Of a stretch of DNA of 64,000 nt, positions 44,944 to 46,039 are shown piece after piece; positions within the stretch are counted from its first letter, which is position 1; the number at the start of each line of letters is the position of its first letter. The notes beneath the pieces were generated by a model. The model had not been told where the DNA came from. It searched no databases and worked only from the letters and a program-made list of their open reading frames with translations. The position numbers and the translations under genes were made by a program. This DNA comes from Escherichia coli (GTDB lineage Bacteria > Pseudomonadota > Gammaproteobacteria > Enterobacterales > Enterobacteriaceae): assembly GCF_003790525.1 (NCBI RefSeq), contig NZ_CP033635.1. One strand, written 5' to 3'.

Positions 44944-45126
44944 TTAATTCATCACAACGGCCTTCTGCATATTAAAATCAATACTATCGCTCAAAACACG
45001 CCAGATGATTCTTGTCAGCTTATTCGCCAGCGCACCAGTGGTTTTCAGGAACCCTCGACGGGCTTCCATCCTTTGCAGACAAATACTCAGACTGTCAGTG
45101 AGCTTTTTCACACAGCGCATTACAGA
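44944..45126 (-). pseudogene. IS110-family transposase C-terminal fragment
   Basis: C-terminal ...ALANKLTRIIWRVLSD motif; cut off by the IS911-like insertion. Confidence 0.45.
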
Positions 45127-46039
45127 CTGAAATGGCACACTGAATTTGGTCACCTGAACAGAGGTGATATGCTCACCTCAGAACAAGACTGGTGCCCTAA
45201 TGAAAAAAAGAAATTTTAGCGCAGAGTTTAAACGCGAATCCGCTCAACTGGTTGTTGACCAGAACTACACAGTTGCAGATGCCGCCAAAGCTATGAATGT
45301 CGGTTCCTATACACTGGGGGGCATGGGTACGTCAGCTCAGGCGGGAACGTCAGGATACCACGTCTTCTGCATCACCACTCACATCAGAGTAGCAACGTAT
45401 TCATGAACTGGAAAAGCAGGTTCGTCGCCTGGAGGAACAAAAAACGATATTAAAAAGCTACAGTGCTCTTGATATCCTTCCCACTGAACGGTTTACGATA
45501 GTTACCAGACTGAGCGGCGACACACGATTGTCAGTCTTTGCGCTGCTCTGGATGCTCATTGCAGCAGTTCCGGCACTGGCAGAATCGGCTCAATACGATT
45601 GATCCGGCGCGAATCAAATTGTATAGCGAAACAGTCCGGGTCTGGAACCAGAGTCGGGGTTCCGCAGGTGCGCGTGCTCTGGCAGATATGCTGATTCAAA
45701 ATGGTATCCCGATGAGCAGTTGTCGTGCCAGGCGGCTGATGAAGCATCTGAACCTGAGAAGTGCTCAGCCCGGAAAATATCAGTACAAAAATGCCCGCCA
45801 GGAGCATACCAGCCTGCCGAGTCTGCTTGAGTGTCGGTTTTCTGTGCTGGAGGCCGAGCAGGTATGGATTCTTAAATAAACCTCGAGTCTGAATCGGTAA
45901 CTAGCTGTTATATTCTGAATTATTACAATAGCGTCAGGCCTCATAATTACACTGTGGGTTGACGCCGGAAGAATCAGAGAACAGATACCGTTCTTACTGT
46001 AAAACGTGGCTAATATTAATTGAGCACTGCAGTGTTCAG
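45127..46039 (+). mobile_element. IS911-like (IS3 family) partial copy with frameshifted orfA and internally deleted orfB
   Basis: Left end TGAAATGGCACACTGAATTTGG; orf[33 protein letters not shown]; orfB fragment 45538-45879 then 3' end sequence. Confidence 0.7.

Follow-up and report, generated by a model that had tools for sequence, protein, structure and literature searches.

A probable two-parent hybrid insertion sequence relic within nested mobile-element debris of an iha-carrying Escherichia coli genomic island

What kind of element is the broken insertion sequence (IS) found at 44944-46039 of a 64,000-nucleotide stretch of the Escherichia coli contig NZ_CP033635.1 (RefSeq assembly GCF_003790525.1; the whole stretch is referred to as the window), and could it recombine with a related intact element nearby? 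The original prediction described one IS911-type element that inserted in an IS110-family transposase gene, subsequently lost several hundred base pairs of its orfB, and formed with an intact copy at 50670-51927 a pair of repeats able to mediate deletion or inversion of the DNA between them. The sequence features on which that proposal was built are confirmed, and its interpretation is only partly supported. We consider it very likely that dead mobile elements nested within one another make up this part of an iha-carrying E. coli genomic island, and that the relic itself is a hybrid of two parents: an IS911-like left end, and a body and 3' end derived from an unnamed IS3-family relic for which the working name ISX is used here. 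The components of the hybrid and the DNA that travels with it are the following.

45128-46031, plus strand: hybrid IS3-family relic (IS911-like plus ISX), 904 bp.
45128-45295, plus strand: IS911-like left end, with the left inverted repeat from nucleotide 1, the orfA start at 45200 and about the first 32 orfA codons; 92.6-95% identity to IS911-annotated elements and 96% to the Ecol_AZ159 element.
45288-45295, plus strand: crossover AAGCTATG, in register within orfA, placed by three-way alignment.
45296-45867, plus strand: ISX body, with the remaining part of orfA and the N-terminal third of orfB (HTH_21); 77.7% identity to ISEc31.
45868-45902, plus strand: 35-bp filler at the internal deletion, standing in for 375 bp (ISEc31 51422-51796).
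45903-46031, plus strand: ISX 3' end, comprising the right inverted repeat and the final ~30 codons of orfB; 87% identity to ISEc31 51797-51927.
46032-46319, no strand assigned: ISX right flank, 288 bp, which together with 45288-46031 is 99.2-100% identical in the sodC...LysR island and in IncF plasmids.

The evidence for a composite origin comes from searches of 5,426 complete E. coli genomes and, for plasmids, of PLSDB. The genomes were compared by megablast with 45128-46038 as the query, and the middle part was searched again more sensitively; the crossover was placed by a three-way alignment of the window, the Ecol_AZ159 locus (L010) and the ISX copies, and the ends of the element by a four-way alignment. 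Identity at the level of IS911 is confined to bases 1-176 of the relic, which match IS911-annotated elements and their relatives at 92-95% in thousands of genomes (92.6-95% over 173-176 bp for the elements annotated as IS911 in RefSeq). Beyond the first ~176 bp, no IS911 match was returned by megablast in these genomes, and the four-way alignment is poor there. The middle of the relic matches by megablast only its own copies, and the last ~130 bp match ISEc31-like ends at 86-91%. In the more sensitive search the middle part is found in about 236 records at 95% identity or more, with an identical deletion junction among the matches listed, and the next-best relatives, ISEc31 and unnamed IS3-family elements, reach only 79%. 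Compared by segment, the relic is 68% identical to ISEc31 in its left 176 bp, 78% in the middle and 87% in the 3' end. Hence, the IS911-like left end that was originally proposed does exist, starting at 45128 rather than at 45127, although it accounts for only ~170 bp of what was taken as a single IS911-like copy; the other ~740 bp belong to the ISX relic and stand at ~78% identity to ISEc31.

Each of the two portions can be followed separately in other genomes. On one side, the Ecol_AZ159 locus, parent A, matches window positions 44029-45303 at 98.7%, a segment that includes phoX, the IS110-family fragment and the IS911-like left end. The junction between the fragment and the IS911-like element is the same there as in the window, and beyond the equivalent of 45303 the Ecol_AZ159 element stays IS911-like up to IS911 nt 414. 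Loci of the Ecol_AZ159 type number about 30. On the other side, parent B is represented by the sodC...LysR island (loci L002, L003 and L005) and by IncF plasmids (L004 and L017), which match 45288-46319 at 99.2-100%, that is, the relic body together with the 288 bp of its right flank. In the IncF plasmid p1517k (L017, NZ_MW800638.1, 7993-9024), all 1032 of 1032 bases of this block are identical to the window. Strain 1517k holds both the IncF plasmid copy and the chromosomal hybrid, which, together with the complete identity of the 1032-bp block, points to a recent exchange between plasmid and chromosome. To the left of 45288 the parent B copies are degraded and ISEc31-like, not IS911-like. The window follows L010 to the left of AAGCTATG and the ISX parent (L003, L004, L017) to its right, the switch falling at the same orfA position in both parents, with homology to L010 spanning 44029-45303 and the ISX block spanning 45288-46319.

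These data make a single IS911-type origin very unlikely. In its favour, the left inverted repeat abuts the IS110-family coding sequence exactly, the internal deletion of orfB is indeed real, and an intact relative from the IS3 family is located close by in the same orientation. This origin is contradicted by the three-way alignment, in which the relic ceases to be IS911 after ~170 bp, and by the identity of the right part and its flank to a plasmid-borne relic whose left side is different. Moreover, neither a target duplication nor the remainder of the IS110-family gene is present, and the intact copy proved to be ISEc31, 68-87% identical only and in a direct orientation that rules out inversion.

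It might also be argued that the hybrid came first, as a natural IS with an IS911-like left part and an ISEc31-like body, and that the plasmid and sodC-island forms as well as the Ecol_AZ159 form arose later by replacement of one side. Mosaicism is known in IS3-family elements, and in the Ecol_AZ159 element, too, the resemblance to IS911 ends at nt 414. This order of events nonetheless appears improbable, because two independent replacements would both have to end in the same 16-bp interval (45288-45303), and because the ~70 bp to the left of the crossover in the plasmid version are ~76% identical to ISEc31. The divergence is thus the same as in the remaining ISX, which argues that the sequence there is native to ISX. 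A target duplication is absent from the hybrid as well.

With regard to the age of its parts, the relic is present in any context in about 233 E. coli records, and the deletion and the filler are identical in all of them, indicating that the deletion is older than the hybrid. An undeleted ISX was found neither in the E. coli genomes nor in PLSDB plasmids, where everything at 95% identity or more is the same deleted relic, nor among close protein homologues; the protein search returned fragments at 87% identity or more, plus ISEc31-like proteins at 65-70%. The hybrid context is common to about 64 complete E. coli genomes. An assembly artefact was considered as the source of the hybrid and is excluded, since these 64 independent complete genomes carry the same sequence.

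Both reading frames of the relic are broken, as had been noticed. In a listing of open reading frames (ORFs) over 44000-47000, plus-strand orfA and orfB frames extend to about 46031. Three lesions disrupt orfA, which starts at 45200: one surplus G in the G6 run (45316-45321) shifts the frame by +1, positions 45390-45392 form a TAG stop in frame, and the slippery site is 2 nt shorter than the intact one (AAAAAAG reduced to AAAAAG, within TTAAAAAGC at 45450-45458). The HTH_Tnp_1 domain of orfA scores 23.5 bits, slightly below the 24.1-bit cut-off. The proposed end of orfB after about 110 residues corresponds to a 113-codon open frame at 45538-45879, in which Pfam detects only HTH_21 (E=1.1e-8) and which aligns to positions 108-220 of the IS3 transposase model NF033516 with E=2.1e-14 and 53.6 bits, against a cut-off of 160. 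The ISX-derived portion of this frame ends in ...EQVW, immediately ahead of the first catalytic aspartate, and the deleted segment runs from just past "...VW" to "...QQIS", so that all three DDE residues are gone. The internal deletion of several hundred base pairs that had been postulated thus amounts to 375 bp relative to ISEc31 (51422-51796), with 35 unrelated bases in their place and a net loss of 340 bp. The normal 3' end does follow the orfB remnant, at 45903-46031, after the 35-bp filler of 45868-45902, and carries an additional 1-nt deletion in the last orfB codons. A derivation of the filler from the deleted segment was rejected: shuffled sequence did as well as the best alignment between the two, 245 of 500 shuffles reaching its score.

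As for its ends, the relic begins at 45128 with TGAAATGGCACACTGAATTTGG and its right inverted-repeat tip lies, by the four-way alignment, at 46031 (...TTGAGCACTGCA); the previously proposed end at 46039 lies 8 bp too far to the right. IS3-family TG...CA termini are present on both sides (TGAAATGG... at 45128 and ...CACTGCA at 46031), and both align to the ends of IS911 and ISEc31. Compared with each other, the two ends agree at just 17 of 40 positions, and the GGCCAC motif, otherwise conserved, carries mutations at either end. The flanking trinucleotides, GAC on the left and GTG on the right, form no target duplication, a mismatch that fits a recombinant origin of the relic. Lacking a working frameshift site, a DDE domain and a target duplication, the relic is a dead IS3-family pseudogene that encodes no transposase, and nothing points to movement or function.

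A different role could be envisaged for its termini, in which the relic would be a non-autonomous derivative, similar to a miniature inverted-repeat transposable element (MITE), mobilised in trans by ISEc31 or IS911, or in which the left end of the relic and the right end of ISEc31 would delimit a 6.8-kb composite unit. Retention of both TG...CA termini, the presence in cis of a live transposase gene, that of ISEc31 at a distance of 4.6 kb, and the occurrence of the relic in more than one genomic setting are in line with it. We regard it as extremely unlikely, given the poor agreement and mutated motifs of the ends described above, the absence of target duplications, and the fact that the composite unit is found elsewhere in none of the 5,426 complete E. 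coli genomes. In addition, the same 288-bp right flank accompanies the relic in every setting, which argues that the block has been inherited or recombined and not transposed.

The IS110-family sequence to the left of the hybrid is of the IS1111 type, and its parts are as follows.

44706-45127, minus strand: IS1111-type 3' fragment, 422 bp, with the right-end tip, the 3' non-coding region and transposase codons 284-344 plus stop.
44706-44719, minus strand: right-end tip and subterminal inverted repeat, of which the window copy keeps the right-end half only.
44706-44943, minus strand: 3' non-coding region with candidate guide segments, defined by alignment to full copies.
44944-45127, minus strand: transposase codons 284-344 and stop, 85-86% identity by tblastn.
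44694-44705, plus strand: 12-nt TTTTGTTGAGCA abutting the IS1111-type right end, resembling the IS911 right inverted repeat before its tip (TTTTGTTGACCA, which CTTCA follows).

A 69-codon ORF on the minus strand, which ends at 44944, encodes the C-terminus of an IS110-family transposase. The fragment protein aligns, at the tblastn identity listed above, with residues 284-344 of a plasmid-borne transposase of Klebsiella aerogenes that is 344 residues long, and at the DNA level the fragment is 92.8% identical to that plasmid copy (L009) over 44699-45127. The element's own end lies at 44706, which makes the fragment 422 bp long and leaves the last 7 bp of the homology to L009 as similar target sequence. 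The family model NF033542 aligns with the fragment over its positions 306-340 of 343 (E=4.5e-4, 19.5 bits against a 140-bit whole-protein cut-off), and Pfam found no Transposase_20 match on the 69-residue minus-strand ORF, as the fragment lies C-terminal to that domain. In total, 61 of 344 residues remain, all C-terminal; the catalytic N-terminal domain, the first 283 codons and the left end of the element are missing, and these 283 codons were not found to the right of the relic in the window, at locus L001 or at L010. No curated RNA family covers the non-coding region, a search of 44400-46700 against Rfam giving no match at E<=1.

Since the IS911-like left inverted repeat starts exactly where the IS110 homology ends, the claim that the transposase gene was truncated by an insertion is right for the left junction. 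A simple insertion of the whole relic is not supported, there being no duplication, no remainder of the gene and a right flank that travels with ISX. To the left of 44706, a longer IS3-family right-end remnant was sought, and only the 12-nt junction match and one non-collinear 18-nt match, which is unconvincing, were obtained. The position of the 12-nt TTTTGTTGAGCA matches that seen in full copies, although the match alone is not significant (30 of 300 shuffles reach its score).

Related debris occurs elsewhere. An unannotated IS1111-type non-coding relic of ~157 bp, at ~85% identity, is present in most of the 974 E. coli records that match, and plasmids account for 843 of the 996 matched places. 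In the AR_0067 IncF plasmid (L012) it lies at 2501-2657, equivalent to window 44704-44860, and in this one plasmid examined it adjoins an IS3-family 3' fragment, end to end as in the full copies. Within the window, further IS110-family homologies are located on the minus strand at 55598-55996, 59586-60544 and 61588-62026, with 27-44% protein identity to the K. aerogenes element, implying at least one further, different IS110-family element or relic past iha.

On the right side, 46032-46319 shows no IS110-family coding potential, and its conservation beside ISX indicates that it is ISX's original insertion-site DNA and not part of the IS110-family element. Immediately beyond it lies another relic.

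46320-46676, plus strand: ISL3-family (ISEc38-like) relic, truncated and internally deleted; NF033550 E=4.2e-9, 89-92% identity to ISL3/ISEc38 in two pieces.

The left edge of this relic is an internal breakpoint and not an inverted repeat, and it marks the right rearrangement boundary of the shared block. Further along, an integrase-core (IS3/IS481-like) pseudogene fragment at 47541-47905, minus strand, sits between a SgcJ/EcaC gene and pseudogenes of an integrative and conjugative element (ICE), with about 69% DNA identity to an IS3-family element in L005.

The history that we infer from these pieces would comprise four steps. In a first step, an IS1111-type element of the IS110 family would have settled at a site that resembles the right inverted repeat of IS911, upstream of phoX. 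In a second, an IS911-like element would have inserted in its transposase gene at codon 284; the junction itself is observed directly, its origin by insertion being the presumed part. Independently, at another locus, the ISEc31-related ISX would have decayed by acquiring a stop codon and losing its frameshift site and the 375 bp of its DDE core. The resulting relic with its 288-bp flank circulates in the sodC...LysR island and in IncF plasmids. Finally, an in-register exchange in orfA at AAGCTATG would have joined the IS911-like left end to the dead ISX relic, presumably by short-homology recombination between related orfA sequences, perhaps between a plasmid and the chromosome.

Several points weigh against this account of a two-parent hybrid. 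The direction of the exchange is drawn from parsimony, and the hybrid could in principle precede both "parents". Exact sharing at the crossover amounts to just 8 bp between the representative parents examined; a chance in-register illegitimate joining, or gene conversion from an unsampled intermediate, are possible alternatives. The right boundary of the shared block (46319/46320) falls at the truncated ISL3 relic. Besides, few candidates came from the ISX protein search, which relied on a word index, and unsampled genomes may contain an intact ISX.

The second question raised by the locus concerns the intact element downstream, which has the following features.

50670-51927, plus strand: ISEc31 (IS3 family), intact, 1258 bp; 100% identical to RefSeq-annotated ISEc31 copies.
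50742-51053, plus strand: ISEc31 orfA.
51002-51008, plus strand: ISEc31 A6G slippery site.
Up to 51919, plus strand: ISEc31 orfB, with a complete rve domain (Pfam E=2.2e-28).
50667-50669 and 51928-51930: ISEc31 target duplication GTA, 3 bp.

RefSeq annotates it as "IS3-like element ISEc31 family transposase", and its inverted repeats agree at 26 of 40 positions. The description of an intact, related copy at exactly these coordinates, about 4.6 kb downstream of the relic, was correct, except that it is a different IS and not a second copy. ISfinder sets the limit for the same IS at roughly 95% DNA identity, and the identity between ISEc31 and the relic is well under that threshold, so that the two are separate ISs. 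ISEc31 inserted 310 bp past the 3' end of iha. Strain Ch1 carries the same neighbourhood with an empty site, its ICE pseudogenes and iha being closer together by exactly 1261 bp, and a left-junction probe found ISEc31 at this site in 0 of 5,426 complete E. coli genomes. Taken together, both observations indicate that the insertion is recent, strain-specific and independent of the relic; its absence from the collection means either that the source strain lies outside it or that the insertion is private. Strain SFE8, judged by spacing, seems to have a different insertion of ~1.3 kb between the relic and iha.

The pairwise alignment proposed for the two elements leaves no doubt about their homology and reveals how uneven it is. 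By blastn, 45133-45867 matches 50675-51421 at 75% identity (E=3e-145, far beyond chance), and 45903-46036 matches 51797-51932 at 87%. The longest exact runs measure 37, 20, 17, 16, 16 and 14 bp, the single 37-bp run being located at 45907-45943 in the 3' end of the relic and at 51801-51837 in ISEc31. What was found, different ISs at 68-87% identity, comes close to the case that the original prediction had set against itself, namely copies of different IS3 subfamilies with little nucleotide identity.

Both elements are on the plus strand and form direct repeats, so a reciprocal exchange could only delete the intervening ~4.6 kb, and the inversion that had been suggested is impossible. This interval contains the ISL3 relic, the SgcJ/EcaC oxidoreductase gene, the integrase-core fragment and the ICE pseudogenes. 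It has been reported that the minimal efficient processing segment in bacteria does not exceed about 30 bp of identity (PMC8918686, citing Shen & Huang 1986), and that recombination through an identical block is less efficient where diverged homology flanks it, because mismatch repair aborts heteroduplex exchange (PMC8918686). As one 37-bp block barely exceeds the ~30-bp threshold, deletion would be possible but rare, and a RecA-mediated deletion between the relic and ISEc31 is accordingly possible but improbable. The predicted deletion product, in which the left flank of the relic is joined to the right flank of ISEc31, has 0 matches in the 5,426 genomes, a result that says nothing on frequency because no searched genome has ISEc31 at this site.

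A third aspect of the locus is the lineage to which the IS1111-type fragment belongs. Full relatives (L009 at ~1571-2919, L013 and L016) measure 1349 bp, and L103 is also a full copy. The K. aerogenes copy lies at about 52540-53888 of NZ_CP142847.1. The full copies read TGATGTG-ATGGACGCCC...GGGGCGTCCAT-ATA, in which one TG belongs to the IS. Their inverted repeats are subterminal, with extensions of 7 bp on the left and 3 bp on the right, and a non-coding region of ~236 bp follows the transposase gene. Such ends and a long non-coding region 3' of tnp characterise the IS1111 family, as does insertion at one defined sequence without target duplication (PMC11187229), a pattern that the present copies follow. 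Each full copy is inserted in an IS3-family inverted repeat at a distance of 5 bp from its tip, in the order flank-TG(T/A)AG, the IS, and TGGTCAA...GGCCAC; in L016 the target is a left inverted repeat instead (TGGCATAGTGAATTTGGCCACC).

The non-coding region contains three guide-like segments that match the target, all of them conserved in the window fragment.

44850-44856, minus strand: segment 1, GTTGACC, the complement of the right target.
44824-44831, minus strand: segment 2, TGTAGTGA, the left target.
44753-44762, minus strand: segment 3, ATATATGGTC, the right-end junction.

A scan of 100,044 species genomes for the right-end tip pattern of the element gave 18 copies with conserved non-coding motifs, and a looser screen added a few. 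Across the scanned and plasmid copies, segment 1 covaries with the right-hand target, as in these pairs of segment 1 and target.

AAGTTGACC with TGGTCAAC.
CTGTGCC, the guide-like segment from Scandinavium, with GGCATAG.
TTCTTATAC with GTATAAGAA.
GTAAAACC with GGTTTTAC.

At 8 loci an OrfB homologue of the IS3 family lies directly beside the junction, and the targets there follow the pattern TGGTCAA...GGCCAC or TGGCATAG...GGCCAC. The hosts of the lineage are Klebsiella, Rahnella, Yersinia, Scandinavium and Serratia, with reprogrammed cousins in Xenorhabdus and Photorhabdus. In the Yersinia ruckeri plasmid p17Y0159.1 (L014, 327-2933), an independent IS3-family element lies within an IS1111-type copy, at a position in the transposase gene unlike that of the window.

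The apparent covariation of guide and target fits the published seekRNA or bridge-RNA mechanism. It is tempting, and plausible though somewhat short of probable, to postulate an undescribed Enterobacterales IS1111-type lineage whose putative seekRNA or bridge RNA would be programmed against the outermost bases of IS3-family inverted repeats. If this reading is true, the window would hold an orphan copy of the guide region together with a reciprocal event, an IS3-family element inside the transposase gene of its own hunter. The lineage would then represent an insertion sequence specifically hunting other insertion sequences and, if active, would inactivate the IS3-family ends into which it inserts, landing 5 bp from their tips. 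In such a case, IS3-family ends would be an added natural target class for the RNA-guided IS110/IS1111 recombinases that are now being engineered. The IS1111-type copies offer a ready natural series of guide/target covariation.

Regarding the locus as a whole, the feature amounts to mobile-DNA debris of an ordinary kind within an E. coli pathogenicity island, and it would recombine poorly with the nearby ISEc31. It illustrates how island DNA is patched by exchange between related, non-identical IS copies, including an identical copy on an IncF plasmid. It also calls for caution, since pairs of "IS3-like" repeats need not be recombination substrates; here they are different elements, 68-87% identical. 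For annotation purposes, the label hybrid pseudogene suits 45128-46031 best, and the ISEc31 insertion at 50670-51927 is specific to the strain and usable as a typing marker.

How do these elements compare with known systems? The relic and IS911 have a common IS3-family layout (TG...CA ends, orfA followed by orfB, and a slippery site between them) and share the left inverted repeat, the orfA start and the ~32 first codons at the identity given above for that end, whereas they are far apart beyond ~45295, where a sensitive search gives just ISEc31-like and unnamed IS3-family elements. ISEc31 is the closest named relative of the relic body and is collinear with it except for the deletion. As for the IS110 family, a preference for the ends of other elements has a precedent in IS4321 and IS5075, which target Tn21-family inverted repeats. 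The lineage described here shares the end structure, the 3' non-coding region and the target-matching segments with the IS1111-family elements that employ a seekRNA or bridge RNA, such as ISEc11, ISKpn4, ISPa11 and IS4321/IS5075 (PMC11187229). In contrast to these, its apparent target is the tip of an IS3-family inverted repeat (TGTAG/TGGTCAA...GGCCAC, the slash marking the insertion point) and not the GTGAAAATACTG of ISEc11, attC, repetitive extragenic palindromic (REP) sequences or Tn21 inverted repeats, and the window copy is a dead 3' fragment. ISEc21, an RNA-guided element of the IS110 family, has its natural target within IS3-family elements, at the DDE codons (PMC11187229), whereas in the present lineage the non-coding region follows the transposase gene and the target would be the terminal inverted repeat.

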